Source: Candidatus Iainarchaeum sp. (GTDB lineage: Archaea > Iainarchaeota > Iainarchaeia > Iainarchaeales > UBA10191). From it: a DNA stretch of 64,000 nucleotides. The stretch covers positions 15,698-79,697 of the forward strand of contig JAUSFL010000023.1 of assembly GCA_030649735.1 (NCBI GenBank), read 5' to 3'. Both the position numbers and the translations under genes were made by a program. The first letter of the stretch is position 1; each line of letters opens with the position of its first letter. Under the pieces are notes generated by a model. It was not told the origin of the DNA and did not search any database. It worked only from the letters and a program-made list of their open reading frames with translations. Of the stretch, positions 11,105 through 31,084 are shown piece by piece.

Positions 11105-11199
11105 TTCTATCCAAGTTTGGATTTCAGAGTCAAAGTTTGCTTTGAGCCTTTCGGCTTTTAAAAAAAAGAAAAAAGAAAGGAAGAATTATTTCCTTTCAA
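11105..11199. terminator. convergent intergenic region with a short hairpin and long oligo-T/oligo-A tracts (candidate bidirectional archaeal terminator)
   Basis: AGCCtttcGGCT hairpin followed by TTTT and then an A-run on the plus strand. The minus strand reads CTTTTTTCTTTTTTTT directly after the pilin stop. Confidence 0.45.
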
Positions 11200-12477: not shown

Positions 12478-12523
12478 AATTGGTTTTTATACTTGTTTTT
12501 TTCTAAGTCTTAGTTGATAATGA

Positions 12524-15196: not shown

Positions 15197-15207
15197 AACA
15201 TTGTATT

Positions 15208-16092
15208 ATGGCTCCAAGCGTTAGATTGTCACCTTCTGGAATTTCCGCATTCACGCAATGCCCGCGAAAATTCTATTTTCGCCATATTGAAAGGCTTCCT
15301 GAACCGGCGTCTGTCTTTCAGGTCCGCGGCAAAATAATCCACAAGGTTTTTGAGCTTTTTTTCCAGACAATTGACATTTCAAAAATCGACCAGAAAAAGC
15401 ACTGGCATGGCATTTGGGATGATTTTCGGGCAGTTTGCTTTGCATTGCTGGATGAGGAATGGTCAAAGATTGGAAAGCCTGGCGCGGGCTATGATGATAT
15501 TTTTGAAAGCGCCGAACAGAAAAAAGGGCTTTTTGAAGAAACGCGGGAGTTTTTGGATTTTTTTTCCGCAAAAATGGCCTATTCGTTCTATAATAAATTG
15601 CACGAGCTTGAAAAGGACGAGTGGTTTGACGCGAATTTGAAAAAGCACTTTTACCCTAAAGGCCGCGAGTTCAAAATAGAGCTTGTTGAAGAAAACATCA
15701 TTGGCTTCATTGACAAGACATTGAATCTTTATGGTGATGGGGTCGCGATTGTCGATTACAAGACTTCAAAATCTTCATTGCCGCATTTCATTTCAGAAGC
15801 CGACTTGAAGCAGTGCAAGGTTTATGCCTGGCTTTGGAACAAAAAATTCAATGAAATTCCCCGCTTTGTCTCGATTTTTTACGTGAGGGACGGCGAGAGC
15901 GTTTATTACCCGATTTCTGAAAAAGACCTTAAGGAAGTCGATGATTCTATTGAGGAAATTCGCTCTAAAGGCCGTGAGATTTCAAACTTTCGCAAAAAGC
16001 CTTCAAGGCTTTGCGAGTACTGCGCTTTTTTTCCAAAATGCTTTGAAAACAAGGAAGAGTTTGAAGCAGTTCTGCAAAAACTCAAAAATTGA
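15208..16092 (+). CDS. Cas4/RecB-family PD-(D/E)XK nuclease with a 4-Cys Fe-S cluster motif (stand-alone; no CRISPR nearby)
   Basis: N-terminal Cys (FTQCPRKFYF); D...IVDYKTSK (D/EYK catalytic motif); QCKVYAWL (QhxxY); C-terminal CEYCAFFPKC (CX2CX5C). Confidence 0.8.
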   Translation: MAPSVRLSPSGISAFTQCPRKFYFRHIERLPEPASVFQVRGKIIHKVFELFFQTIDISKIDQKKHWHGIWDDFRAVCFALLDEEWSKIGKPGAGYDDIFESAEQKKGLFEETREFLDFFSAKMAYSFYNKLHELEKDEWFDANLKKHFYPKGREFKIELVEENIIGFIDKTLNLYGDGVAIVDYKTSKSSLPHFISEADLKQCKVYAWLWNKKFNEIPRFVSIFYVRDGESVYYPISEKDLKEVDDSIEEIRSKGREISNFRKKPSRLCEYCAFFPKCFENKEEFEAVLQKLKN

Positions 16093-16197
16093 ATTGTTGA
16101 TTGCCTTAAACCAAAAACAACCTTTACGCTAATTGTCTTAAATGAGTTGGCTTTTTGACGTAATGTTTTTATTCTGCCTGTTTCATAAGGACTTTAG

Positions 16198-17595
16198 GTG
16201 AGTCTTTCTTTGTCCAATGGAACCAATGGAAACAGCCATAACAGCAACGGCAATAACGAACGCGTCCAAATCCCGCAATTAGATGCAAGAAAGCGCGTGC
16301 ACAATTTCAAGGAAGTAGAGCTTGGATTCTCTAAAGAGCAGGCATTAAAGGAAGCCTCGCGCTGCCTGCAATGCGCAGAGCCTTCCTGCATTCAAGGCTG
16401 TCCTGCAAAAATCCAAATCAGGGACTTCATCAAGGCATTGCTTGAAGGCAGCAATGGCGAAGCAATTGAAATCATTGAGCAATCCAATTATTTTCCTAAA
16501 ATCTGCGGCAGAATTTGCCAGCAAGAATTCCAATGCGAAGGAAATTGCATTCTTGCAAAATCAGGCAAGGCAATAAACATTGGCGGCCTGGAAAGATTTG
16601 TCGGAGACACTCATTCAACAAGCCTGAAGCCAATCAAGGCCAATGGCCAAAAAGTCGCGGTTGTCGGAAGCGGGCCTTCAGGCCTTACAGTCGCAATCCA
16701 ATTGAGCCAGCTCGGCTATGACACCACAGTTTTTGACTCAAGCAAGACAATTGGCGGAGTGATAAAGTATGGAGTGCCCGAATTCAGGCTTCCGAAAAAA
16801 ATCGTTGAAAGCGAATTGCGCAAAATAAAAAAGCTTGGAGTGAAATTTTCAAGAAAGCAGTTCATTGGCTCAGAACAGTCAGTCATTGACTTACTGCACG
16901 ATGGGTTTGACGCTGTCTTTGTCGGAACTGGAGTCGGAGAGGCAAAAATGCTTGAAATGCCAGGCAAGCAATTGACTGGAATAATTCCCGCAGTCAATTT
17001 TTTGATTGCAAAAAACTTGCATGAAAAAAACATGATTGAAAAAGGCGACAAGGTATTGGTAATTGGAGCAGGCTTTGTTGGAATGGACGCGGCAAGGACT
17101 GCAATGCGCTTAGGCGCAAAAGAAGTCACTGTTGCCGCGTTTGAAAGCCCGAAAAAAATGACTTTAGGAATCAAGGAAATCAAGGAAGCGCAGGATGAAG
17201 GAATTTCATTCAAGTACTTGCTTCGCGCTGAAGAATTCTTGGGCGAAGGAATCATTGAGGCAGTAAAGCTAAGAAAGCTCCGCGAGCTTGAAGACGGAAC
17301 AGTGATTGACACTGACGATTTCGAAACAATTAAATCAAGCAAAGTGCTCATAGCAATTGGCTTAAGGCCAAGCATTGACGACAAGGTAAAGCAGCCTTTA
17401 AGGACTGAAGGCGGTAAAATCAATGTTGACGAAAACAACATGACCTCAATTGAAGGGATTTTTGCGGCAGGCGACGCAGTCACTGGCCCAAAAACAGTAA
17501 TTGCCGCAATTGCAGCAGCAAAAAAAGCCGCTCTTTCAATGCACACTTTTTTGCAAAAGAAAGATTTGGAAAAAAAAGGTGGAAAAAATGCCTAA
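16198..17595 (+). CDS. GltD-family FAD/NAD(P)H-dependent oxidoreductase with N-terminal 4Fe-4S binding region (glutamate synthase small subunit / SudA-like)
   Basis: Cys cluster CLQCAEPSCIQGCP...CGRICQQEFQCEGNC; two Rossmann GxGxxG motifs (VAVVGSGPSG, VLVIGAGFVG); C-terminal AAGDAVTG. Confidence 0.75.
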   Translation: MSLSLSNGTNGNSHNSNGNNERVQIPQLDARKRVHNFKEVELGFSKEQALKEASRCLQCAEPSCIQGCPAKIQIRDFIKALLEGSNGEAIEIIEQSNYFPKICGRICQQEFQCEGNCILAKSGKAINIGGLERFVGDTHSTSLKPIKANGQKVAVVGSGPSGLTVAIQLSQLGYDTTVFDSSKTIGGVIKYGVPEFRLPKKIVESELRKIKKLGVKFSRKQFIGSEQSVIDLLHDGFDAVFVGTGVGEAKMLEMPGKQLTGIIPAVNFLIAKNLHEKNMIEKGDKVLVIGAGFVGMDAARTAMRLGAKEVTVAAFESPKKMTLGIKEIKEAQDEGISFKYLLRAEEFLGEGIIEAVKLRKLRELEDGTVIDTDDFETIKSSKVLIAIGLRPSIDDKVKQPLRTEGGKINVDENNMTSIEGIFAAGDAVTGPKTVIAAIAAAKKAALSMHTFLQKKDLEKKGGKNA

Positions 17596-18871
17596 GACTT
17601 CCGCACTTCAAGAATTTTACAAGAAAACATTGGATGAGCGTTTGCAAATCCTCAAGGAAACAACTGGGCTTTCAGACGAAGACCTTGCACAGCTCAAAAA
17701 GTATTCTGCGCTTGATTTCGAAACAGCAAATCGCATGATAGAAAATGTAATTGGAACTTTCGCGCTTCCTTTTGGCATTGCAACAAACTTCATAATCAAT
17801 GGCCGCGAGCTTTTGATTCCAATGGCAATTGAAGAGCCAAGCGTTATTGCCGCAGCCTCCAATGCCGCAAAGCTCTCGCGCTCTACCGGCGGCTTCAAAG
17901 CAAAAGCTTCAGATCCAATAATGATTGGTCAAATTCTCTTGGTCAATGCAAAAAACCCTGAAAAGGCAATCAAGGAATTAATGATCAACAAGCAAAAGCT
18001 CATTGAGTTTGCAAACTCTAAAGACCCAGTGCTTTGCAAAATCACTGGCGGAGCAAAAGACTTACAAGTCCGCAAACTGCACAAAATGCTAGTGGTTCAC
18101 TTGCTTGTGAATTGCGGCGACGCAATGGGAGCAAACGCAGTCAACACAATGCTTGAAGGAATTGCGCCAAAAATTGAGGAATTGACTGGCGCAATAGCGC
18201 GCGCTAAAATACTCTCCAACCTTGCAGTCCACAGGACAGTGCATGCAGAATGCATTTGGAGCAAAAAAGAGCTTGAAGAAAGCACCAAAGGGCAAGTGAA
18301 AGGAGAAGACGTTGTTGAAGCAATCCTTCAAATGTTTGACTTTGCAGAGCAAGACCCTTTCCGCGCAACAACTCACAATAAGGGAATAATGAACGGCATT
18401 GACGCAGTAGTCCTTGCAACTGGAAATGACTGGCGCGCAATAGAAGCCGGAGCGCATTCTTTCGCTTCTTTCGGAAAGCACCAATATTCTTCCCTTACAA
18501 AATACTCCAAAACAAAAGAAGGAGACTTGCAGGGAGAAATAAACATTCCAATGGCAGTAGGCCTTGTCGGCGGCGCAACAAAAACCCACCCGATCGCAAA
18601 AATTTCTTTGAAAATCCTTGACGTGCAAACAGCAAGCGAGCTTGCAGAAATCATTGCCTCTGTTGGCCTGGCGCAAAACTTTGCAGCAATCCGCGCCCTG
18701 GCAACCGAAGGAATACAGGCAGGCCACATGAAACTTCATGCAAAAAACGTTGCAGTAAACGCCGGGGCTTCCAAGGAAATGGTTGACAAGATTGCAGAGC
18801 AAATGATTGCTGAAAAAAGCGTTAACGCGCAGCGCGCGCAAGAATTGCTGAAACAATACCAAAACAAATAA
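17588..18871 (+). CDS. hmgA: 3-hydroxy-3-methylglutaryl-CoA reductase (class II-like)
   Basis: ENVIGTFALPFGIA and the rest of the conserved HMGR catalytic core. ATG at 17588 preceded by GGTGG. The upstream extension of the ORF-track frame is discounted. Confidence 0.85.
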   Translation: MPKTSALQEFYKKTLDERLQILKETTGLSDEDLAQLKKYSALDFETANRMIENVIGTFALPFGIATNFIINGRELLIPMAIEEPSVIAAASNAAKLSRSTGGFKAKASDPIMIGQILLVNAKNPEKAIKELMINKQKLIEFANSKDPVLCKITGGAKDLQVRKLHKMLVVHLLVNCGDAMGANAVNTMLEGIAPKIEELTGAIARAKILSNLAVHRTVHAECIWSKKELEESTKGQVKGEDVVEAILQMFDFAEQDPFRATTHNKGIMNGIDAVVLATGNDWRAIEAGAHSFASFGKHQYSSLTKYSKTKEGDLQGEINIPMAVGLVGGATKTHPIAKISLKILDVQTASELAEIIASVGLAQNFAAIRALATEGIQAGHMKLHAKNVAVNAGASKEMVDKIAEQMIAEKSVNAQRAQELLKQYQNK

Positions 18872-18912
18872 TAAGAATCTTTGAGTAAGTTTTAGGAAAA
18901 TTGGTGAAATAA

Positions 18913-19959
18913 TTGGAAAAAATAGGAATTGTCGGTTACGGAGCATACATTCCAAAATTCAGGATCAAGGCAGAAGCCATTGCTGAAGTTTGGGGCGAAA
19001 ACGCCGATAAAATCAAGGCAGGCCTTGGGCTTACGGAAAAGTCATTGCCTGCAAAAGACGAAGACACTACAACAATCAGCGTTCAAGCAGCACGCAATGC
19101 GCTGCTCCGTGCTGGAATTGTTGGAAAAAAAATTGGCGCATTATACATTGGCTCTGAATCACACCCTTACGCTGTAAAGCCGACTGCTGCAACAGTCGCT
19201 GACGCAATTCAGGCCGGCTTTGACACAATGGCTGCAGACACTGAATTTGCCTGCAAGGCTGGAAGCGCCGCAATTCAAATGGTTGCTGGCTTAGTAAAGA
19301 GTGAAATGATAGAGTATGGAATGGCAATTGGCTCTGACACTTCACAATCATCCCAAGGAAATGCATTGGAATATTCAGCAGCTTCTGGTGGCGCAGCATT
19401 TATTTTAGGCCGCGAAAAAAAAGAGATTATTGCAGAATTGGAAAAAACTCTTTCTTTCACTAGTGACACTCCGGACTTTTGGCGCAGAGGTTTGCAGGAA
19501 ACTCCAGAGCATGCTGGAAGATTTACTGGAGAACCTGCTTACATGAAGCATGTTTTGGGGGCAACTCAAATGATTCTTTCAGAAACAAACTCAAAGCCGT
19601 CAGACTTTGACTATGCAGTATTCCACATGCCTAATGGAAAGTTTCCATTACAGGCTGCAAAAAAGCTTGGATTTTCAACAGAGCAAGTAAAGCCTGGATT
19701 GGTTGTTTCAAAAATTGGCAATACTTATTCTGGCTCTTCGCTTTTAGGACTCTCTAGTGTTTTGGACATTGCAAAAGCAGGCCAGAAAATTCTTGTTACA
19801 AGTTATGGTTCTGGCTCTGGAAGCGATTCTTTCATTTTCAAGACAACAAAGCGTTTGGAAGAAGTGCAAGACAAGGCAAAAAAAACAGAAGATTACGTTG
19901 CCCGAAAAGAATATGTTGGATATTCAAAATACAGGCAGCACATGGCAATGGTAGTGTGA
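18913..19959 (+). CDS. archaeal HMG-CoA synthase
   Basis: MEKIGIVGYGAYIPKFRI... is the typical archaeal HMGCS N-terminus (condensing-enzyme fold). TTG start. Confidence 0.8.
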   Translation: MEKIGIVGYGAYIPKFRIKAEAIAEVWGENADKIKAGLGLTEKSLPAKDEDTTTISVQAARNALLRAGIVGKKIGALYIGSESHPYAVKPTAATVADAIQAGFDTMAADTEFACKAGSAAIQMVAGLVKSEMIEYGMAIGSDTSQSSQGNALEYSAASGGAAFILGREKKEIIAELEKTLSFTSDTPDFWRRGLQETPEHAGRFTGEPAYMKHVLGATQMILSETNSKPSDFDYAVFHMPNGKFPLQAAKKLGFSTEQVKPGLVVSKIGNTYSGSSLLGLSSVLDIAKAGQKILVTSYGSGSGSDSFIFKTTKRLEEVQDKAKKTEDYVARKEYVGYSKYRQHMAMVV

Positions 19960-20234
19960 AATTTATGGATAAGAAGAAAATTATTGTTTTTTTGGCTTTG
20001 ACAATTTTGATTCTTATACTCTTTGAAATTATATTTTCGGTTTCAAATTATAGCTTAGTTTCAGGATTTAGTTCACAAAGGGGTTTTCCATTTCCTTACT
20101 ACGCAGAATTACCTTGCTCTTCGAGGGAAGATTCCTTAATGTGCAGAGAATATGCATTTCTAGTTGTGGATATTGCAATTGCCGCGATTATTTCTGCTGG
20201 CGTGACTTTTTTAATTATGAGGCATTCTAAATGA
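19956..20234 (+). CDS. small membrane protein (1-2 TM), unknown; inserted between HMGCS and thiolase
   Basis: 92-aa ORF with a TM helix (IIVFLALTILILILFEIIF) and a second hydrophobic C-terminal segment. Overlaps neighbouring gene ends by 4 nt on each side. Confidence 0.45.
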   Translation: MKFMDKKKIIVFLALTILILILFEIIFSVSNYSLVSGFSSQRGFPFPYYAELPCSSREDSLMCREYAFLVVDIAIAAIISAGVTFLIMRHSK

Positions 20235-21382
20235 AAATTGGAGTCATTGGAACTGGTTTGACAAAGTTTGGCGAAATTTGGGACAAGTCGCTCCGTGACC
20301 TTTTGGCAGAAGCGCAGCTAAAGTCTTTGGAAGAGGCAGGAATTTCTCCAAAAGACATTGAAATGATTTTTACAGGCAACATGTGCGCTGGCGCTTTAAG
20401 CGGTCAATTGCACATTGGCGCAATGGCTGCAGAAAACCTGCGATTAAATGTTCCGTCAACTCGAGTTGAAGGCGCTTGCGCTTCTGGAGCATTGGCAATA
20501 AGGGCAGGAATTGCTGCAATCGAATCTGGAGCCGCAAAAATAGTTCAAGTGAATGGCGTTGAAAAAATGACTGATGTTTCAACAGAGCAAGTGACCACTG
20601 CCTTGATGGGCGCTGGAGACGAGGAAGTTGAAGGATTTCAAGGAGCGACTTTTCCTGCACTTTACGCTTTAATGGCGCGCGCTTACATGCAAGAGTTTGG
20701 CTTGACTCGCGAAGAGCTTGCTGCAGTTCCTGTGAAAAGCCACAAGCACGGTTCAATGAATCCAATAGCCCAGTACCAGAAAGAGCTTTCAATTGATGAC
20801 GTGATTAATGCCTCAATGGTTTCAGACCCGCTCACGCTAATGGATTGCTCCCCAATAACTGACGGTGCTTCTTCAATAATCCTTGCCACTGAAAGCATTG
20901 CAAAAAAATTGAACAATGATGCTGTCTGGGTTGTGGGAAGCGGACAGGCTTCTGACACTCTTGCTCTTTCAAACCGCGACTCGCTCAGCGAGATTAAGGC
21001 AACGCGTTTTGCTGCAGAGCATGCTTTCAAGCAGGCTGGAATTACTGCAAGGGATGTTCACTTGGCTGAAGTGCATGATTGCTTTTCAATTGCAGAGCTT
21101 TTGGCAATTGAAGGATTGGGATTGGCAAAGAAGGGAGAGGCTGGAAAGCACGCTGCAGCAGGCCATCATTACTTTGATTCTAAAATGCCAATCAACACTT
21201 GCGGCGGCTTAAAGTCTTGCGGCCATCCAATTGGAGCGACTGGAGTAAAGCAGGCTGTTGAAATAGTGCATCAATTGCAGAATCGCGCTGGAAAACGCCA
21301 AGTGAAAAAGGCAGAAGTTGGAGTTGCACAAAACGTTGGAGGCACAGGCGCTACTGTAGTAGTGAATGTGTTCAAAAGGTGA
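20231..21382 (+). CDS. acetoacetyl-CoA thiolase (archaeal thiolase-fold protein)
   Basis: MKIGVIGTGLTKFGE...EGACASGALAI... (active-site Cys region), C-terminal GHPIGATG. Archaeal ACAT pattern. Confidence 0.85.
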   Translation: MKIGVIGTGLTKFGEIWDKSLRDLLAEAQLKSLEEAGISPKDIEMIFTGNMCAGALSGQLHIGAMAAENLRLNVPSTRVEGACASGALAIRAGIAAIESGAAKIVQVNGVEKMTDVSTEQVTTALMGAGDEEVEGFQGATFPALYALMARAYMQEFGLTREELAAVPVKSHKHGSMNPIAQYQKELSIDDVINASMVSDPLTLMDCSPITDGASSIILATESIAKKLNNDAVWVVGSGQASDTLALSNRDSLSEIKATRFAAEHAFKQAGITARDVHLAEVHDCFSIAELLAIEGLGLAKKGEAGKHAAAGHHYFDSKMPINTCGGLKSCGHPIGATGVKQAVEIVHQLQNRAGKRQVKKAEVGVAQNVGGTGATVVVNVFKR

Positions 21383-21768
21383 AATTAATGCCATTATTCA
21401 AGAAAGCAAGATTGACAAGAGGCCGGCTCTTTGAAAAAGTTGGCGCTTTTTCACAGGCTGGGTCAAGGAATTTTGCAAAAGTTTACACTAAGCAATTGTC
21501 TGTAGCCACTGGCAGGCCTGCAATCGCAAAGTCTTTGGCAAATGAACAAGATAGGTTTTCTCCAGATTATGCCCAAATTTTAAGAAATTTGGGAAAAACT
21601 AGGATTCGTGGGACTAAAAGAGAAAAAGTTGTCCAAAGAAAAAAGATCGTGAGAGCAATTAGTAAAAAGACTGGTTCTCCTCCAAGGCATTTTGGCCTGG
21701 CGTTAAGGGAATCGAGAATAATTGCCGAAGTCCCGCATCCTACATCAGTCAAAAGGAGGGCTAAATAA
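21379..21768 (+). CDS. small highly basic protein, unknown; inserted between thiolase and the DUF35 scaffold
   Basis: 129 aa, Arg/Lys-rich. GTG/ATG start overlaps the thiolase stop and its stop overlaps the DUF35 start. No recognisable motif. Confidence 0.4.
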   Translation: MKLMPLFKKARLTRGRLFEKVGAFSQAGSRNFAKVYTKQLSVATGRPAIAKSLANEQDRFSPDYAQILRNLGKTRIRGTKREKVVQRKKIVRAISKKTGSPPRHFGLALRESRIIAEVPHPTSVKRRAK

Positions 21769-22166
21769 TGTTTCGAAGCACGCCAATAATTCGCTGGAGA
21801 AAATACCAAGAGCGCTATAATTTGATGGGCGCAAAGTGCGAGAAGTGCGGCAAACTACATTACCCGCAGCCTGCATTATGCACTTGCGGTTCTTCAAAAT
21901 TCATTGCGCACAAGTTCAAGGGAGAAGGCACTTTGCTTTCTTTCACTGACATTGGCTCTGGCCCAGAGGCCTATGCAGAGCATGCGCCTTACTGCCTTGG
22001 AATAATCCAATTGTCTGAAGGCCCTAAGATTACAAGCCAGCTTTCAGACTGCAAGTTGGAAGACTTGAAGATTGGAATGCAAATGATTGCGACTTTCAGG
22101 AAGTTTTACTCTTCCGGAGAAAAAGGCGCAATTTATTACGGAACAAAATTCACGCCGAAATGGTGA
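21768..22166 (+). CDS. DUF35-family OB-fold / zinc-ribbon protein (thiolase-HMGCS complex scaffold)
   Basis: Zinc ribbon CEKCGKLHYPQPALCTCG followed by an OB-fold-like C-terminus. Conserved adjacency with archaeal thiolase and HMGCS. Confidence 0.75.
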   Translation: MFRSTPIIRWRKYQERYNLMGAKCEKCGKLHYPQPALCTCGSSKFIAHKFKGEGTLLSFTDIGSGPEAYAEHAPYCLGIIQLSEGPKITSQLSDCKLEDLKIGMQMIATFRKFYSSGEKGAIYYGTKFTPKW

Positions 22167-22227
22167 TTTTTCGTTCATTGTCTTTCAAAAAATAGTTTTT
22201 AATCATTCATTGCAGTAATTGATTATT

Positions 22228-23226
22228 ATGAAACAAGTCAAGGCTTCAGCTCCGGGAAATCTGTTCTTTGCAGGAGAGCACGCAGTGGTTTACAATTATC
22301 CAGCAATTGTCACTTCCATTGGAAAGCGGACTTTTGTCACAGCTTCTTCAAGAGAAGATATTATAGTTGAAATTGAGAGTAGTGCTTTTGGAATTGCGAC
22401 AGCAAAAAACCGCAATGGCCAGTTGATTGAGCGCTCCATGGAAAAGAAAGAATTGAATTCTGTAATGGATTTGTGCGAGAAAGTAATTCAAGACTTCAAG
22501 ATTTCTGACGGCTTTTCCTTAAAGATTGAGTCCGAAATTCCAGTAGAGTCTGGAATGTCTTCAAGCACTGCTGTTTTGTGCGCTAGTTTTTGCGCAATCA
22601 CTGAATTGTTCGGTCAGCACGTAAAGCCTGAAAAGTATTTTGATTCTTTGTATCCTTTGCAGGTGAAAATTCACGGTGGAAAGGCTTCAGGCGCGGAAAT
22701 TTACTCTTCTTCAGTTGGTGGATTCAACAGGATTCAAAAAGTTGAAGAGAACGGAAAAGTCGTGCAGAAAGTAAAGTCTTTGGGAAAGCAAGAGTTTTCA
22801 GTGGTTATTGGGAACACTAAAGTGCGCGGCCCAACAGCACTTGTTGTTGGAGTTCATCACCCAAGTATAATTAAGAGATTTCCAGAATTAGTTCGGGATT
22901 CTTGGAAAAAAATTGAAAAAATCGTGAAGTCAATGCAGTCAGCAATAAAAAAAGGGGATGTGGTAAAAGTTGGAAAGTTAATGACTGCAAACCAGAAAGT
23001 TCTTTCCAAAATTATGCTTTCTCACCCAAAATTGGACGATTGCATTACTGAAGCCTTGAAGGCCGGTGCTTTAGGAGCAAAGCTTTCTGGCGGAGGCTGG
23101 GGCGGAGTAATGTTTGCCTTAGTGCGCAAGGAAGACGAGGATAAAGTTGCAAAGGCAATTGAAAGCACTGGAAGCGAGGCAATAATTACCGAAATTGGCG
23201 GAGAAGGAGTCAGAGTTGAGGAATAA
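22228..23226 (+). CDS. mvk: mevalonate kinase (GHMP kinase family)
   Basis: SAPGNLFFAGEHAVVY (motif 1) and PVESGMSSSTAV (GHMP ATP-binding motif). Confidence 0.8.
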   Translation: MKQVKASAPGNLFFAGEHAVVYNYPAIVTSIGKRTFVTASSREDIIVEIESSAFGIATAKNRNGQLIERSMEKKELNSVMDLCEKVIQDFKISDGFSLKIESEIPVESGMSSSTAVLCASFCAITELFGQHVKPEKYFDSLYPLQVKIHGGKASGAEIYSSSVGGFNRIQKVEENGKVVQKVKSLGKQEFSVVIGNTKVRGPTALVVGVHHPSIIKRFPELVRDSWKKIEKIVKSMQSAIKKGDVVKVGKLMTANQKVLSKIMLSHPKLDDCITEALKAGALGAKLSGGGWGGVMFALVRKEDEDKVAKAIESTGSEAIITEIGGEGVRVEE

Positions 23227-23235
23227 TTTGATATT

Positions 23236-23793
23236 ATGAAAAAGAAAATTATCGTTGGAATTACTGGCGCTTCTGGAATAGAATACGCTATCGAGTTCTT
23301 GAAGGGACTGAAAGAGCGCAAGGAAATAGAGACTCACTTGATAATTAGCGAGGCCGCAAAGAAAGTTCTCGAAATAGAGACCGAATTCAAAAGCAAGGAT
23401 CTGGAAAAGCTTGTTGACTTTGTTTACGACAACAAAAACATGGCTGCTTCAGTAAGTTCTTCGAGCTTTAAGATTGATTCAATGATTGTAATTCCAGCTT
23501 CTGTGAAAACCTGCTCTGCAATAGCGAATGCTTACACTGACGAATTGATTGTGCGCTGCGCTGATAACATGTTAAAGTTTAAGAAAAAATTAGTTGTTTG
23601 TATTAGAGAAACGCCATTAAGTTCCGCTTGCCTGAAAAATTTGCACGAGCTTTCACTGATGGGTGCAGTTGTGATGCCTTTAAGTCCTGGCTTTTATTTG
23701 AATCCAAAGTCTAAAAAAGACTTAATCTTTTTTATGATTGGTAAGTGCCTTGATTCTTTGGAAATTGACAATGACTTCAAAAGGTGGAAATAA
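23236..23793 (+). CDS. ubiX: UbiX-family flavin prenyltransferase (prenyl-FMN synthase)
   Basis: MKKKIIVGITGASGIEYAIEFLK... is the typical UbiX/Pad1 flavoprotein N-terminus. About 185 aa. Confidence 0.8.
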   Translation: MKKKIIVGITGASGIEYAIEFLKGLKERKEIETHLIISEAAKKVLEIETEFKSKDLEKLVDFVYDNKNMAASVSSSSFKIDSMIVIPASVKTCSAIANAYTDELIVRCADNMLKFKKKLVVCIRETPLSSACLKNLHELSLMGAVVMPLSPGFYLNPKSKKDLIFFMIGKCLDSLEIDNDFKRWK

Positions 23794-25097
23794 TGGGTTT
23801 TAGGGATTATTTGCAAAAGCTTGAAAAGTCTCACAAGTTGCAAAAAATTAGCGCGTCTGTTTCAAAGCATTTGGAAGCTTCAGGGATTCTAAAAGCCATT
23901 GAGCCTAAGGCAGTTCTTTTTGAAAAAATCAAAGAAAGCAATTTTAAAGTGGCTGGAAATGTTTTTCCGACAAAAGATTCAATAGCCGATTATGTGGGTT
24001 GCGAGACAAGTGAATTGATTTCAACAATCAATAAAGCAATCTCTAACATGAAAGCCCCTGAGGAAACAAAGAATGCAAAATGCCAGGAAGTCGTTGAAGA
24101 AATCGTTGACCTTGATAAATTGCCTATTTTATTCCATTGTGCGCATGATGGTGGAAATTACATAAGCTCTGGGATTGTTGTTTCAAAAGACAAAGAATTC
24201 GGGCAAAACCTTGACTTTCACAGGATGATGCAGATTGGAAAGAATAAGTTTTCAGTAAGGATTGTTAAAGAGCGAAATTTTGACACTTTCTTGAAGAAAA
24301 ACGGCGAAATGGACATTGCTGTTTGCATAGGAAACGGAGCAAATGTTCTGGTTGCTGCTGCAACTTCAATAGAAATTGGAAAAAACGAGCTTGGAATTGC
24401 AAATGCGCTAGAGCCTTTGACAGTCACTCGCGCTAAAACTTCGGACTTGCTTATCCCTTCAGACTGCGAGTTTGTGATTGAAGGAAGGATTGTGCTTGAA
24501 GAAAAGGCAAATGAAGGTCCGTTTGTTGACTTGACTGAAACTCTTGATGTTGTAAGGCAAGAGCCAGTTCTTACAGTAAAAAAAATAACCCACAGGAAAG
24601 ACGCAATCTGGCAGGCACTGCTTCCAGGTGCATTAGAGCACAAGGTTTTGATGGGAATGCCGCGCGAACCCACAATTTTCAAGAAAGTCAACGAGGCAGG
24701 AGTGAAATGCATTGATGTTAATGTAAATCCTGGAGGCTGCAGCTGGTTGCATGCTATTGTGAAGATCGACAAGCAAAATGAAGACGATGGAAAAAAGGCA
24801 ATTGACGCTGCATTTGAAGGCCATAAGAGCTGCAAGCATATTTTTATTGTCGACAAGGACATTGACATTTACAATCCATTGGATGTGGAGTGGGCAATGG
24901 CAACGCGCTTTCAGGCAGATGTGGACTTTAAAATGAAAGCCAGGGAAAAAGGCTCAAGCCTTGATCCAAGCGCTGATCCTGAAACCCACTTTACCACAAA
25001 ATGTGGTTTGGACTGCACTGCATCCTTGCAGGTCAAAGGAAAGAATTTTTCCAAAGAGCCTTTCCCGCAGGTTGACTTGAAAAAGTATTTGAAGTGA
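23784..25097 (+). CDS. UbiD-family decarboxylase; candidate anhydromevalonate-phosphate decarboxylase of the alternative archaeal MVA pathway
   Basis: About 437 aa with UbiD-like organisation, directly downstream of ubiX and upstream of the aconitase-X pair. Functional assignment rests on gene context. Confidence 0.65.
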   Translation: MEIMGFRDYLQKLEKSHKLQKISASVSKHLEASGILKAIEPKAVLFEKIKESNFKVAGNVFPTKDSIADYVGCETSELISTINKAISNMKAPEETKNAKCQEVVEEIVDLDKLPILFHCAHDGGNYISSGIVVSKDKEFGQNLDFHRMMQIGKNKFSVRIVKERNFDTFLKKNGEMDIAVCIGNGANVLVAAATSIEIGKNELGIANALEPLTVTRAKTSDLLIPSDCEFVIEGRIVLEEKANEGPFVDLTETLDVVRQEPVLTVKKITHRKDAIWQALLPGALEHKVLMGMPREPTIFKKVNEAGVKCIDVNVNPGGCSWLHAIVKIDKQNEDDGKKAIDAAFEGHKSCKHIFIVDKDIDIYNPLDVEWAMATRFQADVDFKMKAREKGSSLDPSADPETHFTTKCGLDCTASLQVKGKNFSKEPFPQVDLKKYLK

Positions 25098-25103
25098 TTT
25101 GAA

Positions 25104-26282
25104 ATGAAACTGACTGCTGACGAAAAGAAAATGCTTGCAGGCAAGCACGGGAATGCAGTAAAGAAGTCAATGGAAATTCTAGTGGCGCTTGGAGAGATTT
25201 TTGGAGCTAAAAGGCTGATTGATGTTGCAAGCGTTCAGGTTGCTGGAGTAAGCTATCATAATTTGGGCGATGCTGGATTGGAATTCTTGGAAGAGCTTGC
25301 AAAGGATGGCAAAGTCAAAGTATTGACTACTTTGAATCCTGCAGGAATGGACTTGGAAAACTGGAAGAACTTGGGAATTTCCCCAGAGTTTGCCGAAAAG
25401 CAAAAGAAAGTTATTGATGCCTTTGAAAAATTAGGCGTTGTAACAACTTGCACTTGCACTCCTTATTTTGTGGGAAACTTGCCGCGATTTGGAGAGCACA
25501 TTGCATGGAGCGAAAGCAGTGCTGTCGCATTTTCAAATTCTATTATTGGGGCGTTCACAAACAAGGAGGGTGGACCAAGTGCTTTGGCTGCTGCATTGAC
25601 TGGAAAAACTCCTGAATATGGTCTGCATTTGAAAGAAAACAGACAAGCTCAAGTCTTAGTAAATGTAAAAGCAAGGCTTGAAGGAACGCGGGATTTTGGG
25701 GCATTAGGTTATGCGATTGGAAAAAAGATTGGCACAAAAATTCCATTGATTAAAGGAATTAAGAAAGCAAGCATTGAAGAACTGAAAAATTTCAGCGCGA
25801 GCATTGCAACTTACGGCGGAACCGGGCTTTATCATATTGCGGGCATTACTCCTGCAAAAACACAAGCCCCTAAGGAAATAGTTTCAATAGGCGAATCAGA
25901 CATTGAAGCCGCAAAAACAGCATTAAATGACGCGGTTGAAGGTGAAATTGACCTTGTTGCAATAGGCTGCCCGCATTGCTCAATTAAAGAATTGCAAAAT
26001 ATTGCAAAGCTTTTGAAAGGGAAGAAAGTTAAAAAGGAAATTTGGATTTGCGTTGCAAGACCAGTGAAAAGCATTGCTGACAAAATGGGATATTCAAAAA
26101 CAATTGAAGAGTCAGGGGCAAAATTTGCATGCGACACTTGCATGGCAGTCGCTCCGTTGAAAGGCAGGTTTAAGGGGCTGGCTACAGACTCTGCCAAGGG
26201 CTGTTTTTATGGCAGGGGCAGCAATTCTTTCAAGACAAAATTTTGCACAATGGAAGAATGCATTCAAGAGGCGATTGAATGA
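25104..26282 (+). CDS. aconitase X catalytic subunit (AcnX large subunit); candidate phosphomevalonate dehydratase large subunit
   Basis: About 392 aa with an AcnX/DUF521-like Cys/Ser-rich pattern (CTCTPYF..., GCPHCS, CDTCM). Confidence 0.7.
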   Translation: MKLTADEKKMLAGKHGNAVKKSMEILVALGEIFGAKRLIDVASVQVAGVSYHNLGDAGLEFLEELAKDGKVKVLTTLNPAGMDLENWKNLGISPEFAEKQKKVIDAFEKLGVVTTCTCTPYFVGNLPRFGEHIAWSESSAVAFSNSIIGAFTNKEGGPSALAAALTGKTPEYGLHLKENRQAQVLVNVKARLEGTRDFGALGYAIGKKIGTKIPLIKGIKKASIEELKNFSASIATYGGTGLYHIAGITPAKTQAPKEIVSIGESDIEAAKTALNDAVEGEIDLVAIGCPHCSIKELQNIAKLLKGKKVKKEIWICVARPVKSIADKMGYSKTIEESGAKFACDTCMAVAPLKGRFKGLATDSAKGCFYGRGSNSFKTKFCTMEECIQEAIE

Positions 26283-26668
26283 ATCTTAAAGGAAGGAAAA
26301 TCTGCGCTGGAAAAGCCAAAGGCGAGGCAATTGTTTCAAATCAAGGAATTTCATTTTATGGCGGCGTAGACCCTAACACTGGAATTGTTGTTGAAAAAGG
26401 CCACGAGCTTGAAGGCAAAAGCATTGCAGGAAAAATTCTTGTTTTTCCGCAAGGAAAAGGCAGCACTGTAGGGAGCTACACAATGTACCGCCTGAAAAAG
26501 AATGGAAAAGCGCCTTTAGCAATTATAAACAAGGAATGCGAAACAATAGTTGCTGTTGGGGCAATAATTTCAGAAATTCCCTGCATTGACAAGATTGACA
26601 TTTCCCAAATAAAAACCGGCCAAAATTTAGCGGTTGATGCAGAGAACGGAATTGTGGAAGTGCAATAA
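26279..26668 (+). CDS. aconitase X swivel-domain subunit (AcnX small subunit); candidate phosphomevalonate dehydratase small subunit
   Basis: About 129 aa, GKAKGEAIV...GKILVFPQGKGSTVGSY pattern of the DUF126/AcnX swivel domain. Overlaps the large-subunit stop. Confidence 0.7.
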   Translation: MNLKGRKICAGKAKGEAIVSNQGISFYGGVDPNTGIVVEKGHELEGKSIAGKILVFPQGKGSTVGSYTMYRLKKNGKAPLAIINKECETIVAVGAIISEIPCIDKIDISQIKTGQNLAVDAENGIVEVQ

Positions 26669-27474
26669 TGCCTGTTCCATTGTATATTATGAAGGTTGGC
26701 GGTTCTGTTTGCACTAAAAAGGCAGAGAACAAATTTGAGGCAAATCGCGAATTAATAGCAAAAGTCGCTTCTGAAATAAAGCGCGCGCAAGCAAATAAAG
26801 AATTCCAATTAATTTTAGTCCATGGCGCAGGGCCCTTTGGGCACACTAATGTGAAAAATTACGGCATTAATGATGGAATAAAGACAGAACAGCATGTTGA
26901 AGGATTTATCAAAACTCACTTGGCAATGCAGGAATTAAATTCTGTGTTTTTGCAAGAGTTTGAAAACGCAGGCTTGAAGGCGATTGCAATTGACCCGACA
27001 GCTTGCATTGTTCAAAACAACAAGAAAATCTCAAAGTTTGAAACTTTACCTCTAGAACTTCTTTTGAAAATGAACTCTAAAATAATTTCCATAATGTACG
27101 GCGACATGGTTGTTGACTTGAAAATTGGCGGCAGTGTAGTGAGCGGCGATGCGATAATTTCTTACCTTGCACACCGATTGAAGGCAAGCAAGATTCTGCT
27201 TGGGACTGATGTTGCCGGAGTTTTTGAGGCAGACCCTAAAAAATTTCCCAACGCCAAACGAATTGAAATAATTGACAAGAAAAATTTCAATCAAATAATA
27301 AAAAACGTGACTGGATCTAATGCAATTGACGTTACGGGGGGAATGAAAGAGAAACTCTTGAAATTACGGCAGCAGCTTTCTGGCTGCAATGCACTGATTT
27401 TTGACATGCGCATTGCCGAAAACACTATCAAAGCGCTTGTCGGAAGCGTTGAAGGAACTAAAATTCTACTTTGA
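26668..27474 (+). CDS. ipk: isopentenyl phosphate kinase (amino-acid-kinase fold)
   Basis: IMKVGGSV...ILVHGAGPFGH motif characteristic of IPK. About 268 aa. Confidence 0.8.
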   Translation: MPVPLYIMKVGGSVCTKKAENKFEANRELIAKVASEIKRAQANKEFQLILVHGAGPFGHTNVKNYGINDGIKTEQHVEGFIKTHLAMQELNSVFLQEFENAGLKAIAIDPTACIVQNNKKISKFETLPLELLLKMNSKIISIMYGDMVVDLKIGGSVVSGDAIISYLAHRLKASKILLGTDVAGVFEADPKKFPNAKRIEIIDKKNFNQIIKNVTGSNAIDVTGGMKEKLLKLRQQLSGCNALIFDMRIAENTIKALVGSVEGTKILL

Positions 27475-28278
27475 TTTCTTGAATGCTTTTTCAATTTCGG
27501 CAATTAACTTAGTTATTGGCTGGGAATTCTCGAATATTTGGTCATAAATTTCTGAAAAATCCTTTAATCCTTTAATGCAAATCCAACAGCTTGAATGCAT
27601 ATTGGATGGAAGAGTAAATCCAAGCATTAATTCTTTTTCTGTTATTGCCATTGAATTAATGCTTCTTAAGGGGGCATATCTCAATTCCATGTTTTCTAAT
27701 TTGGAGAGTTTTTTCAGGTTTTCAAATGCTTGCTTGTCCTTTTTTTCTATTATTGTGGATTTTGTCAAATCCCCAGCAATCAAGTATTTGACAAAAATTT
27801 CGTTTTTTTCTATTTTAGCTATCAAAGCATCCAAATATTTGCCCATATCCGGTTCAAAATAACGTTCACTCTCAAAAATAAGCCCCGGAGTTTTCGAGCT
27901 AAGCTTTATGTTTTTTGCTTTGCTTATAATTTTACAAAGATGATTCCAACTTTCCTTTCGATTAAAGAATATTTTTGCATTGACCCAGTCTTTGCATTCT
28001 TTTCCTGACTCGTAATTTTCTAAAACTCTTCTAGTAAAGGCATTTATTTCTTTGAGCCAAATTGGGTTTAAACTATATTCTCTTTCCTTTTTTGTGATTA
28101 TGCCGTCATCCAAAAGCACAGTTAAACACTTGTGAATGGCTTGATATGACAGATTTCTTCCAAGATTCCTTTGAACTTTATGGTAAACTTCTTTTGCATT
28201 CAAAGGCCATTCTTCAGAAAGAACCGCAATTATGTTTTTACTAACTGATTCTTTTTGCATCAAGAAACTTAAAACCAT
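27466..28278 (-). CDS. winged-helix transcriptional regulator candidate, divergent from idi and tail-to-tail with ipk
   Basis: N-terminal wHTH-like region (NAKEVYHKVQRNLGRNLSYQAIHKCLTVLLDDGIITKKEREYSLNP) plus a ~180-aa C-terminal domain of unknown function. Confidence 0.5.
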   Translation of the reverse strand: MVLSFLMQKESVSKNIIAVLSEEWPLNAKEVYHKVQRNLGRNLSYQAIHKCLTVLLDDGIITKKEREYSLNPIWLKEINAFTRRVLENYESGKECKDWVNAKIFFNRKESWNHLCKIISKAKNIKLSSKTPGLIFESERYFEPDMGKYLDALIAKIEKNEIFVKYLIAGDLTKSTIIEKKDKQAFENLKKLSKLENMELRYAPLRSINSMAITEKELMLGFTLPSNMHSSCWICIKGLKDFSEIYDQIFENSQPITKLIAEIEKAFKKSK

Positions 28279-28359
28279 AAAATACTCAAGGGTAATAAGC
28301 TTAAAATTAGAGAACTCTGATTTAAATACTATAAATTTAGTGGAATATTCAAATTAGGG

Positions 28360-28456
28360 TTAAAATGCCTTTAAACTAATTAACCTTTAAAACCTCTAAA
28401 AAGGTTTTAAAGTTTCAAAAACAAGCCAAATTTTTGAAACCTTTAAAAACTCCTTT
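28360..28456. promoter_or_regulatory. intergenic region with repeated CCTTTAAA(A)C elements including a 10-bp inverted repeat
   Basis: Inverted repeat CTTTAAAACC (28385-28394) / GGTTTTAAAG (28403-28412) with an 8-nt spacer. Further copies at 28368-28376 and 28440-28450. Candidate operator and/or TATA elements of the divergent promoters. Confidence 0.5.
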
Positions 28457-28471
28457 TTGGATAGTTTTATC

Positions 28472-29527
28472 ATGGCTTTAAAAAAGAAGGAAATCCAGAC
28501 TGTTTCTCGAAAGAGAGAGCACATTGACATTTCGTTAAAGCATGACGTGCAGTTCAAGAAAAAGACCACTGGCTTTGAGGATGTAGAGCTGGAGTACTTG
28601 GCTTTGCCTGAATTGGATTTTAAGGAAATTGACACTTCAACAAAGTTTTTGGGCTTTAATTTTTCATTCCCACTGTTTGCCAGTTCTATCACTGGCGGCC
28701 ATGCTGATGTTAAGAAAATCAACGAGGAAATAGCAAAGGCCTGCAGCAATGCAGGAATTGGAATGGCTTTGGGAAGCATTCGAGCAATGCTAGAGGACAA
28801 GAAAGTTGCAGATTCTTACAAAGTCCGAAAGTTTTTGCCTAAAGGATTCTTGGCGGGAAATTTAGGAGTTTCCCAATTGAAGGATTATTCTGCACAGCAG
28901 ATTGGAAAAGCGCTTGATGAATTGCAGGCTGACGCGTTGTTCATTCATTTGAACGCTGCCCAAGAGGCATTGCAAAAGGATGGAACTCCAAACTTCAAGA
29001 ACTGCATCAAGCAATTATATGATTTTTGCGAGGCTTTTGAAAAGCCGGTTATTTTGAAGGAAGTGGGTAATGGAATTTCCGGAACCACTGCCGAAATGCT
29101 AAAGGACGTTGAGTTTGAGGCTTTGGATGTTGCGGGCGCTGGCGGGACTTCCTGGACTGCAATTGATTCTTTAAGGGGCAATAAGGAAATTGCGGAAACT
29201 TTTTGGGATTTTGGAACCCCGACTGCAGTGAGCTTGATTCAGGCAAGAATGGTTTTTGATTCCACTCCAATAATCGCTTCTGGAGGAATCCGCTCCGGGC
29301 TTGACGTTGCAAAAGCAATCACTTTAGGCGCTGACTTGGCTGGAACTGCAATGCCTGTACTGCATGCGCAGCACAAGGGTGGAGTGAAGGGAATTGAAGA
29401 ATTGTTCTCAAAAATGCAGAAAGAATTCAGGATTGGAATGTTTTTGACTGGCGCAAAAAAGCCCGAGGAATTAAAGGGCAGAAAGTATTACTTGTTTGGA
29501 AAAACCGCGGAATGGGTCGAGCAATAA
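28472..29527 (+). CDS. fni: type 2 isopentenyl-diphosphate isomerase (FMN-dependent IDI-2)
   Basis: TIM-barrel FMN-oxidoreductase pattern: SSITGGHA, ILKEVGNGIS, ASGGIRSGLDVAKAITLGADL. ATG at 28472. Confidence 0.8.
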   Translation: MALKKKEIQTVSRKREHIDISLKHDVQFKKKTTGFEDVELEYLALPELDFKEIDTSTKFLGFNFSFPLFASSITGGHADVKKINEEIAKACSNAGIGMALGSIRAMLEDKKVADSYKVRKFLPKGFLAGNLGVSQLKDYSAQQIGKALDELQADALFIHLNAAQEALQKDGTPNFKNCIKQLYDFCEAFEKPVILKEVGNGISGTTAEMLKDVEFEALDVAGAGGTSWTAIDSLRGNKEIAETFWDFGTPTAVSLIQARMVFDSTPIIASGGIRSGLDVAKAITLGADLAGTAMPVLHAQHKGGVKGIEELFSKMQKEFRIGMFLTGAKKPEELKGRKYYLFGKTAEWVEQ

Positions 29528-29992
29528 ATGCCTGCCAGAAAGCCGGCAAAGCCTGGAAGAAAAGAATTGATAAAGCAGATTAGAATGTTTGGCAGCGACG
29601 GCTACACTCCTGCTGGTTTAAGGGCTGAAAGCGCAAGTTTTAGGCAATCTGAGAGTCTTTTCAAGAGAACAGATTATCGCCCAGAGTATGCGGAGAATTC
29701 CAGAAGAGCTGCGATTGCCTCAAGGTTTGCTGCAATGCAAAAGTCAGGGGCTTTGGAACGAATTAAATTAAGGGCTGCTGCCGGAAGAAAAAGCAAGGCT
29801 TCAAGAAAAATGGTAGTTGCAAATATTAAAAGTTTGAGGAAGAAAAGTTATTCTCCGGAAGAATTAAGGGCTGCAAGCAGGCAGCTTAGCGCAAGAGGCC
29901 ATAAGGAACTGGCTTTGGCCACTCGTTTTTCAGCAATGGAAAAGTCCGGCTCTTTGAAGAGATTGAAAAAAAACTCTAAAGCAAGGCGCTAA
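29528..29992 (+). CDS. small basic protein with an internal repeat (RFAAMQKSGALERIKL / RFSAMEKSGSLKRLKK); unknown function
   Basis: Begins MPARKPAKPGRK. Shares the N-terminal motif and the R[FY]A[AS]M motif with two nearby ORFs. Confidence 0.5.
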   Translation: MPARKPAKPGRKELIKQIRMFGSDGYTPAGLRAESASFRQSESLFKRTDYRPEYAENSRRAAIASRFAAMQKSGALERIKLRAAAGRKSKASRKMVVANIKSLRKKSYSPEELRAASRQLSARGHKELALATRFSAMEKSGSLKRLKKNSKARR

Positions 29993-30098
29993 TTTCTTCA
30001 TTTTTCGCTTTTTTCCAAGGGCTTAAATACCAAAAGGCTTTTATTAACTGTAATCAGTAAATAATACAGTTTTGCGTGTTTTTCTAGAGTGATTTTTA

Positions 30099-30860: not shown

Positions 30861-31084
30861 AAATGCCCGCCAGAAAAACTCCTTTTTTGAAAAGAAAGAA
30901 CAACAAGCGCGTTGTTCTAAGGCATGCTGAATTCTTCCAAACAAGGCTGCGCGAGGACAACTTGTTTTTTGGAAAAATGGTTCTGGACGCGTCAAAGGCT
31001 GCAACGGGTAAAAAAAAGTCTTCTTTGCGCAGGATTGCGATTGCAAGGCGTTATGCCTCAATGCTGCAAGGGAAAAAGCAGTGA
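30857..31084 (+). CDS. small basic protein, paralogous to the N- and C-terminal motifs of 29528..29992
   Basis: MKMPARKTPFLKRK...IAIARRYASMLQGKK repeats the MPARK and RxA[AS]M motifs. Confidence 0.4.
   Translation: MKMPARKTPFLKRKNNKRVVLRHAEFFQTRLREDNLFFGKMVLDASKAATGKKKSSLRRIAIARRYASMLQGKKQ

Follow-up and report, generated by a model that had tools for sequence, protein, structure and literature searches.

A compact mevalonate gene cluster in a DPANN archaeon and a conserved NfnB-like flavoprotein gene linked to class II HMG-CoA reductase

A whole archaeal mevalonate gene set is contained within about 13 kb of contig JAUSFL010000023.1 (assembly GCA_030649735.1) of Candidatus Iainarchaeum sp., a small DPANN archaeon whose metagenome-assembled genome (MAG) is labelled Candidatus Diapherotrites at NCBI. 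The stretch analysed here comprises 64,000 nucleotides (contig positions 15,698 to 79,697) and is referred to as the window; the cluster occupies window positions 16198–29527 and is headed by a gene for an iron-sulphur (Fe-S) flavoprotein that is the main subject of this report. The listing of open reading frames (ORFs) together with curated hidden Markov models (HMMs) placed all pathway genes on the plus strand, and the packing is tight, with many start and stop codons overlapping by 1–8 nt. Assignments were made with curated Pfam, NCBIfam and TIGRFAM profiles, and most proteins exceeded the equivalog, subfamily or Pfam cut-off of their best-fitting model. The flavoprotein is the exception, scoring above the Pfam domain cut-offs and below all NCBIfam cut-offs.

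The first gene (16198–17595, plus strand, as are all genes of the cluster unless stated otherwise) encodes an NfnB/GltD-like protein of 465 aa with the domains Fer4_20 and Pyr_redox_2 (MDO8647395.1, named 'FAD-dependent oxidoreductase' by NCBI). [quoted passage not shown] Next come genes for an archaeal-type HMG-CoA synthase, HMGCS (18913–19959; NF003274 517 bits, TIGR00748 482 bits), an acetoacetyl-CoA thiolase of the archaeal thiolase-domain type (20231–21382; NF004720 516 bits against a cut-off of 420, NF053570 484 bits and under its cut-off of 600) and the DUF35 protein (21768–22166), a thiolase/HMGCS scaffold with OB fold and zinc ribbon (PF01796, OB_ChsH2_C; PF12172, zf-ChsH2) and a CxxC...CxC motif. 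The lower pathway begins with mevalonate kinase, MVK (22219–23226, or from 22228 in the gene call on a contig of the Logan assembly; TIGR00549 188 bits against 163), and the flavin prenyltransferase UbiX (23236–23793; NF004685 215 bits against 188), which provides prenylated FMN for the UbiD enzyme. The UbiD-family decarboxylase of 434 aa follows (23793–25097; MDO8647404.1; TIGR00148 364 bits, above its cut-off), its start being the ATG at 23793 and not a GTG according to the protein look-up. The large subunit of AcnX, that is of phosphomevalonate dehydratase (25104–26282; 392 aa, MDO8647405.1; PF04412 522 bits), and its small, swivel subunit (26279–26668; 129 aa; PF01989 125 bits, NF003046 191 bits) are encoded by separate genes overlapping by 4 nt. 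Isopentenyl phosphate kinase, IPK (26668–27474; NF040647 201 bits against 120), and, beyond a minus-strand ORF, the type 2 isopentenyl diphosphate isomerase IDI-2 (28472–29527 in the Logan gene call, the ORF opening at 28457; TIGR02151 373 bits against 281) complete the set.

The reductase is unambiguously of class II, as it reached 422 bits with TIGR00532 (cut-off 260) and 56 bits with the class I model TIGR00533 (cut-off 442), and it aligned with P. mevalonii HMGR (1qax) at about 421 bits with the catalytic motifs EEPS, HNKG, GNDWRA and GHMKLHA in register. It shares with the P. mevalonii-type enzyme these motifs and an Asp at the residue aligned with Asp146, and differs in carrying an ES-TKG insertion common to some other DPANN HMGRs and in the translational coupling of its gene to that of the flavoprotein.

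On these assignments, the cluster covers the known route through trans-anhydromevalonate phosphate in all its steps, from acetyl-CoA to isopentenyl diphosphate (IPP) and dimethylallyl diphosphate (DMAPP). HMG-CoA would be made by thiolase and HMGCS with the DUF35 scaffold, class II HMGR would reduce it to mevalonate, and MVK would phosphorylate the product. The two-subunit AcnX would then dehydrate phosphomevalonate to trans-anhydromevalonate phosphate, the UbiD-family enzyme with prenyl-FMN supplied by UbiX would decarboxylate this to isopentenyl phosphate, and IPK and IDI-2 would provide IPP and DMAPP, respectively. The AcnX large subunit scored 384 bits with the Thermococcus kodakarensis phosphomevalonate dehydratase structure 7cnr_A, with the Cys residues of TCTPY, GCPH and DTC aligned, and 7cnr_B was the top PDB match of the small subunit. 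The three Cys ligands of the [4Fe-4S] cluster were established by mutagenesis in the Aeropyrum enzyme (PMC10040528). The UbiD-family protein shares 63–87% identity with its homologues among the best 120 matches, the named ones being mostly from Micrarchaeota, Asgard and Bathyarchaeota. UbiX and AcnX flank its gene both in the window and in three related loci (L006, L007 and L089; related loci are given by such numbers), and in another (L082) a UbiD-family ORF adjoins AcnX. Family membership, conservation and gene context thus make it a well-supported candidate for the trans-anhydromevalonate-phosphate decarboxylase; its nearest solved structure we take to be furandicarboxylate decarboxylase.

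The enzymes are the same as in the archaeal mevalonate pathway of Aeropyrum pernix, Methanosarcina mazei and T. kodakarensis, namely MVK, a type IIb two-subunit AcnX, UbiD/UbiX, IPK and IDI-2. The three AcnX Cys ligands are likewise present, and a second GHMP kinase, phosphomevalonate kinase (PMK) or diphosphomevalonate decarboxylase (DMD) is likewise missing from the window. What differs is that all genes, including the three of the upper pathway, are in one co-oriented 13-kb array, that the HMGR is of class II, that an Fe-S flavoprotein leads the array and that two small unassigned ORFs are interleaved. As in the thiolase/HMGCS/DUF35 channelling complex, the three respective genes lie together and the DUF35 OB fold and zinc ribbon are intact, whereas in the window a 92-aa membrane ORF parts HMGCS from thiolase and a 129-aa basic ORF parts thiolase from DUF35. 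The original prediction, which was made by a model from the sequence alone, had named the pathway genes, assigned them to the AcnX/UbiD route, remarked on the lack of PMK and DMD and called the HMGR class II-like. All the genes it named were recovered at their coordinates on the plus strand, each with a curated HMM (AcnX, UbiD, UbiX and IPK among them), the route was supported and the HMGR class confirmed by the matches above, and within the window the lack of PMK and DMD held. It had overlooked the two small ORFs, however, and its wording of a near-complete pathway was too cautious, since the set is complete.

Earlier work has described both the archaeal mevalonate pathway of Diapherotrites and the occurrence of class II HMGR within DPANN (PMC6107057; PMC11052028). 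The pathway itself is known, while its compact form is rare outside this lineage. A scan with the HMGR profile, using one genome per GTDB species, returned 80 further loci with class II HMGR, which belong to Chloroflexota and to numerous archaeal phyla. Most of these had no other mevalonate gene within 10 kb, a minority had HMGCS, thiolase and DUF35 alongside HMGR, and a single locus from Bathyarchaeia brought MVK, UbiD, AcnX, IDI-2 and HMGR together. At most five other mevalonate genes were found within 10 kb of HMGR in any of them and none harboured the whole set, in agreement with the expectation that full co-localisation is unusual. Outside the window, the complete array was found solely in relatives that likewise bear the flavoprotein gene (L006/L007 and L089).

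Among solved structures the flavoprotein comes closest to the large subunit of bifurcating Nfn, as represented by NfnII and NfnI of P. furiosus and by NfnB of T. maritima (5vj7, 5jca and 4ylf; 310–354 bits), with which it has the cofactor-binding motifs in common. Invariant in the subfamily to which it belongs are the residues of two [4Fe-4S] sites (eight Cys and one Glu), the FAD motif GSGPSG and a second dinucleotide fold, GxGxVGxD. This subfamily formed about five clusters at 50% identity in a profile search of 1.84 billion representative proteins, followed by a sharp drop in score to the classical types, and is restricted to a few related DPANN lineages. An alignment and neighbour-joining tree of 120 homologues placed the 48 sequences with a GxG(Y/F)VG signature in a single clade, apart from the 72 classical ones, and the four subgroups within this clade are only 45–48% identical to one another. 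All 48 have Tyr323, Arg324, Arg325 and Arg333 (numbering of P. furiosus NfnI-B) replaced and the SGR(R/K)RP loop deleted. Tyr323, Arg324, Arg325 and the loop were kept in all 72 classical homologues and Arg333 in 71 of these, giving the pattern GxGN...YRRS...PAR. In the window's flavoprotein Arg324 is replaced by Phe, Arg325 by Glu and Arg333 by Gly, and the loop bearing Arg382 is deleted; Glu at the Arg325 position is found in four of the six members of its subclade, the window included.

It has been established that Arg325 and Arg382 contact NADP(H), that Arg333 is specific to true NfnB, and that NfnB homologues lacking both Arg333 and an upstream nfnA are monofunctional ferredoxin:NADP+ oxidoreductases (Fnors), an activity which NfnB has by itself (PMC12221290). 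A search with the N-terminal portion of a fused homologue as query gave no NfnA/PyrK-like partner, either in the window or in the HMGR-linked loci available at that stage, and no nfnA-like ORF was among those scored around the metagenome loci added later. The gene directly upstream of the window's flavoprotein encodes a PD-(D/E)XK nuclease, whereas a classical homologue from Bathyarchaeia has an nfnA-like gene in this position. The flavoprotein is thus not a bifurcating NfnB, because the partner was not found and because Arg333 and the arginines contacting NADP(H) are gone. Neither is it a GltD small subunit, as TIGR01316, TIGR01317 and TIGR01318 all scored below cut-off; a GltB-type gene was not seen among the scanned window ORFs or the called genes of related loci. 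The Cac_0764-type Fnor (PMC12221290) is a closer parallel in that it also combines Fer4_20 with Pyr_redox_2, two [4Fe-4S] sites and FAD without an adjacent nfnA and without Arg333. The published description of that type sets the present subfamily apart, which additionally lacks Tyr323, Arg324, Arg325 and the whole SGRRRP loop. It is moreover archaeal (DPANN) and always has HMGR downstream, and while the N-terminus of the Cac_0764 type is short, the flavoprotein aligns from residue 7 of NfnI-B, with 20 further residues, and is not visibly shortened. Given the loss of the Arg and Tyr residues and of the loop, it is doubtful that the subfamily binds NADPH as Cac_0764-type Fnors do.

The association with HMGR is very clean. 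Contig look-ups and a metagenome scan yielded 55 non-redundant subfamily loci, nine of which are uninformative since the contig ends too early, and a class II HMGR gene lies downstream on the same strand in all of the 46 others. The two genes are directly adjacent in 39 and separated by one to three genes in seven. Conversely, HMGR was not near any of 29 other GltD-like genes, and no GltD-like gene was within 10 kb of HMGR in the 80 surveyed loci. The subfamily of NfnB homologues that includes the flavoprotein is small and monophyletic, and in the genomes it is tied to class II HMGR. The pairing is present in all four subgroups and is kept where IDI-1 takes the place of IDI-2 (L089) and where a DMD-family decarboxylase is found and no AcnX, UbiD or UbiX is in view (L090 and L094). 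Zip transporter and NikR genes in L088 split HMGR from HMGCS, not HMGR from the flavoprotein, and IDI-2, which is upstream of the flavoprotein in many loci, comes last in the window's cluster. That the pair survives rearrangement of the rest of the cluster speaks for HMGR in particular as the gene with which co-expression is selected, and against a role tied to IDI-2, prenyl-FMN or AcnX.

The genes that do come between the two recur. One encodes a divergent NAD-kinase-family protein (L113, L131, L135, L140, L143 and L148), scoring 64–69 bits against NAD-kinase cut-offs of at least 300, and another a truncated protein of the acetyl-CoA-condensing LeuA/CimA/homocitrate-synthase family (L095, L113, L126, L135 and L137); some loci have both. 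The former is a further pointer to the supply of pyridine nucleotide. Just upstream of HMGR in an Iainarchaeum locus that lacks the flavoprotein lies a more canonical NAD kinase gene. That the GltD-like protein might supply reductant to HMGR had been offered as speculation in the original prediction. Its service to HMGR now has strong comparative backing from the 46 loci, and the mechanism is for the present deduced. No paper describing the association came up in full-text searches of a limited literature collection, and an earlier description is possible. The conserved, remodelled NfnB-like partner of HMGR is the new part of the cluster.

HMGR has no redox cofactor of its own and consumes two hydrides from NAD(P)H per mevalonate, and a stand-alone oxidoreductase regenerating this nucleotide is the most economical reading. 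With moderate confidence we take the flavoprotein for a monofunctional ferredoxin:NAD(P)+ oxidoreductase, working without NfnA and regenerating the cofactor of HMGR. Electrons from reduced ferredoxin would pass through the two [4Fe-4S] clusters to FAD and on to NAD(P)+, and the NAD(P)H formed would be the nucleotide used by HMGR, two per mevalonate. Reduced ferredoxin could come from, for example, pyruvate:ferredoxin oxidoreductase (POR), which also makes acetyl-CoA; genes for the POR gamma and ferredoxin-type subunits are found downstream of the cluster in L006/L007. Co-translation with HMGR would match cofactor supply to demand, and isoprenoid synthesis would serve as a sink for ferredoxin electrons in a fermentative archaeon with a reduced genome. 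As to the nucleotide, NADH appears more likely than NADPH, although the signals conflict. The loss of the arginines contacting NADP(H), the Glu at the Arg325 position and the Asp of HMGR aligned with P. mevalonii Asp146 would all point to NADH. The cofactor-specificity position of class II HMGR corresponds to Asp154 of rpHMGR, Asp being found in class II enzymes that prefer NADH (PMC12292504).

Several points weigh against this assignment. The cofactor signals disagree, the NAD-kinase-family neighbour in some relatives pointing to NADP(H), and Asp at the Asp146-aligned position was discarded as a discriminator because it is near-universal in archaeal class II HMGRs, being present in most of the 89 aligned. 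For the whole subfamily the role of the flavoprotein is read from sequence and context, and adjacency speaks for co-expression and not for a mechanism. Since HMGR lacks a redox cofactor, any coupling would go through free or channelled NAD(P)H, which a housekeeping enzyme could supply. A ferredoxin, POR or other obvious electron donor was not found in the window, nor did any window ORF of at least 50 aa contain a classic ferredoxin motif. For the pathway, likewise, the UbiD-family protein is assigned by family, conservation and context rather than by a match to a characterised enzyme. Finally, no feature of HMGR strictly co-varies with the flavoprotein partner. Only the ES-TKG insertion and one Arg-to-Lys change stood out as a possible signature; ES-TKG is also present in four unpaired DPANN HMGRs, two of which (L008 and L010) have a full 10 kb upstream without a GltD-like gene, and is missing from the paired L091, so it reflects phylogeny and not an interface.

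Electrons might instead flow in the opposite direction, from NAD(P)H through the Fe-S clusters to another isoprenoid or lipid enzyme in need of reduced flavin or ferredoxin, as in GltD or the corresponding domain of dihydropyrimidine dehydrogenase (DPD), but we regard this as unlikely. The acceptors that come into consideration, the FMN of IDI-2, the prenyl-FMN system of UbiX/UbiD and the ferredoxin of geranylgeranyl reductase, are disfavoured. IDI-2 is a TIM-barrel enzyme that requires reduced FMN, GltD-type modules are seen to feed FMN barrels in GltS and DPD (PDB matches), and the IDI-2 gene is directly upstream of the flavoprotein gene in L004–L007, L088 and many metagenome loci. This adjacency is variable, however: IDI-2 is not upstream in the window or in L002, it is not beside the flavoprotein in L091 and L094, and the flavin-free Nudix isomerase IDI-1 is found just upstream, with one 58-aa ORF between, in L089. 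The spacers also differ, those to HMGR ranging from an overlap of 8–14 nt to 75 nt and those to IDI-2 from 95 to 227 nt. A gene for geranylgeranyl reductase is accompanied by a ferredoxin gene of its own 7–8 kb upstream in L004 and L088, but reduction of ferredoxin by NAD(P)H is thermodynamically uphill without bifurcation. The prenyl-FMN system, in turn, is not in view in L090 and L094, which keep the flavoprotein-HMGR pair together with a DMD-family decarboxylase.

In our estimate it is similarly improbable that the flavoprotein serves the lineage as a general ferredoxin:NAD(P)+ oxidoreductase, or in some other housekeeping redox role, and owes its position beside HMGR merely to inheritance. 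The genomes are small and hold few redox enzymes, free NAD(P)H would suffice for HMGR, and as the subfamily of some five clusters occurs in few related DPANN lineages, shared ancestry could account for part of the synteny. Yet the four subgroups have diverged to 45–48% identity, and reshuffling has repeatedly changed where IDI lies and of which type it is, which lower pathway is present and what is inserted between HMGR and HMGCS, while the order of flavoprotein and HMGR was retained in every informative locus, often with overlapping codons. Insertions between the pair are also of recurring kinds, among them a member of a pyridine-nucleotide family, that of NAD kinase.

A physical complex of flavoprotein and HMGR, in which the nicotinamide is retained or channelled and HMG-CoA reduction becomes effectively ferredoxin-dependent, has a slighter chance. 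The strict linkage to HMGR, the stop/start overlaps of 8 nt in the window and 14 nt in L094, the zero spacing in L006 and the remodelling of the nucleotide pocket in every member, with the SGRRRP loop and three arginines lost, would fit such a complex. The lack of a strictly co-varying HMGR feature and the other genes intervening in seven loci speak against it, and we know of no HMGR complex of this kind. The wider proposal, of a two-protein HMG-CoA reduction system in a group of DPANN with a ferredoxin-driven flavoprotein coupled to HMGR physically as well as translationally and the nicotinamide retained or channelled, is doubtful. If true, it would constitute a ferredoxin-dependent HMG-CoA reductase system without a described counterpart, and the committed step of isoprenoid synthesis would be driven by ferredoxin.

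That the cluster is an assembly chimera or a recently acquired foreign island rather than a native operon is very improbable, even though the sequence is from a MAG and full clustering is rare among archaea: a Logan contig from an independent assembly is 100% identical to window positions 22159–30933 (8.8 kb), an ENA contig of a related organism is collinear at 74–82% nucleotide identity with 7710–21221 and spans the upstream junction, the base composition is even (GC content 0.38–0.45 across the window), and the gene order recurs in several related MAGs and metagenome contigs. On these grounds the cluster has no sign of chimerism, which the original prediction had mentioned as a possible objection.

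DPANN archaea are mostly viewed as dependent on a host for lipids, and in some members the route to IPP and DMAPP is evidently encoded in full and in compact form. To this is added a recurrent accessory gene of the mevalonate pathway that was not found in the literature searched and that, with its very clean association, is a well-defined target for biochemistry. Should the favoured ferredoxin:NAD(P)+ oxidoreductase activity link ferredoxin to HMGR, it would explain by what means isoprenoid synthesis is paid for in a fermentative archaeon that has few redox enzymes, and would offer a ferredoxin-to-NAD(P)H module together with a ready-made, ATP-saving 13-kb cassette for isoprenoid engineering in anaerobes.

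The two small ORFs that interrupt the upper pathway are both called by PGAP, as implied by the NCBI protein numbering, and no family was found for either. In the 92-aa ORF (19956–20234) two helices are predicted to be membrane-embedded and a loop contains Cys; the ORF shares 4 nt with the end of the HMGCS gene and another 4 nt with the beginning of the thiolase gene. The 129-aa ORF (21379–21768), which is very basic (isoelectric point, pI, 11.9), overlaps its thiolase and DUF35 neighbours by 1–4 nt. In distant relatives, too, a small ORF stands between HMGCS and thiolase (84–85 aa; L006 7241–7498, L007 about 4985–5248 and L089 13704–13958). Like the one in the window it has a pair of membrane helices, a loop containing Cys and a basic C-terminus (..RK/..SK), and no family was found for it; L002, the closest relative, does not have it. 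Anchoring the thiolase/HMGCS complex to the membrane is a role it could play. Small ORFs of very basic character (pI 9.6–11.9, 50–234 aa) are interleaved with mevalonate genes in many of these DPANN clusters, including the window, L004, L088, L090 and L091, and homology among those of these clusters was confined to one pair, L004_133 and L090_135. Another, of 154 aa and pI 11.5, is directly 3' of IDI-2 (29528–29992, plus strand); no family was found for it, and it is called as a gene in the Logan assembly.

The minus-strand ORF of 270 aa (27466–28278), convergent with IPK and divergent from IDI-2, had been labelled a divergent regulator. Its strand is as described, and the label finds weak backing in a winged-helix-like N-terminus modelled with moderate confidence. 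The protein is lineage-specific, with only four homologues among 5.8 billion proteins and no family match, HTH_45 reaching E = 0.013 only. The AF2 model is poor overall (pLDDT 49), with residues 10–80 at pLDDT 71–83 forming a helix-helix-helix-strand-strand arrangement; Foldseek placed IclR, PerR, MarR and PadR regulators at the top, none at E ≤ 1e-3. A relationship to TrmB was rejected, there being no similarity to the neighbouring TrmB gene, and a regulator is a plausible but weak proposal. Between this ORF and IDI-2, four copies of AACCTTTAAAA with at most one mismatch were detected by a motif search of the divergent intergenic region (28382–28448). The window as a whole holds this motif at chance level (6 found, 6.05 expected), four of the six being within these 67 bp, and a search that took in other parts, such as the stretch upstream of the first gene, gave no overall enrichment. 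The repeat cluster is a candidate operator.

Relatives vary the cluster scaffold in several ways. The isomerase is swapped in L089, where 9191–9733 encodes a Nudix-type IDI-1 above the curated cut-offs, and the L094 cluster (12953–13483 and 17343 onwards) has an unclassified Nudix gene and a Pfam match of the MVD-like kind in the place of AcnX/UbiD. A gene of the diphosphomevalonate-decarboxylase family, above cut-off, takes this place in L090 (10410–12411), and L088 has two tandem MVK-like kinases. A polyprenyl synthase gene of L089 (1–697; 829 aa) contains intein and LAGLIDADG domains (Hint and Intein_splicing, from precomputed Pfam assignments).

The remaining genes of the window are ordinary archaeal housekeeping genes, such as those for aIF2-gamma, aIF5B, L7Ae, S6e, Kae1, GluRS and DnaK/GrpE, and tRNA and Rfam scans of the window gave no matches. 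The region 7676–13841 is assigned, by synteny with L002, a secretion- or pilus-type ATPase (T2SSE) and two T2SSF membrane genes, followed by three KaiC-like ATPase genes directly upstream of the cluster. Two large proteins have a single recognisable domain each, VWA in one of 812 aa (2374–4812) and a Kazal inhibitor domain in one of 960 aa (55697–58579), and a 727-aa ORF on the minus strand (53418–55601) has no family. A 555-aa protein encoded on the minus strand (38009–39676) joins an MtrA-like N-terminal region to a thymidylate synthase domain and a C-terminal pterin-binding DUF4346, and the gap between grpE and dnaK is occupied by a free-standing ORF of 311 aa (60575–61510) resembling LAGLIDADG homing endonucleases.

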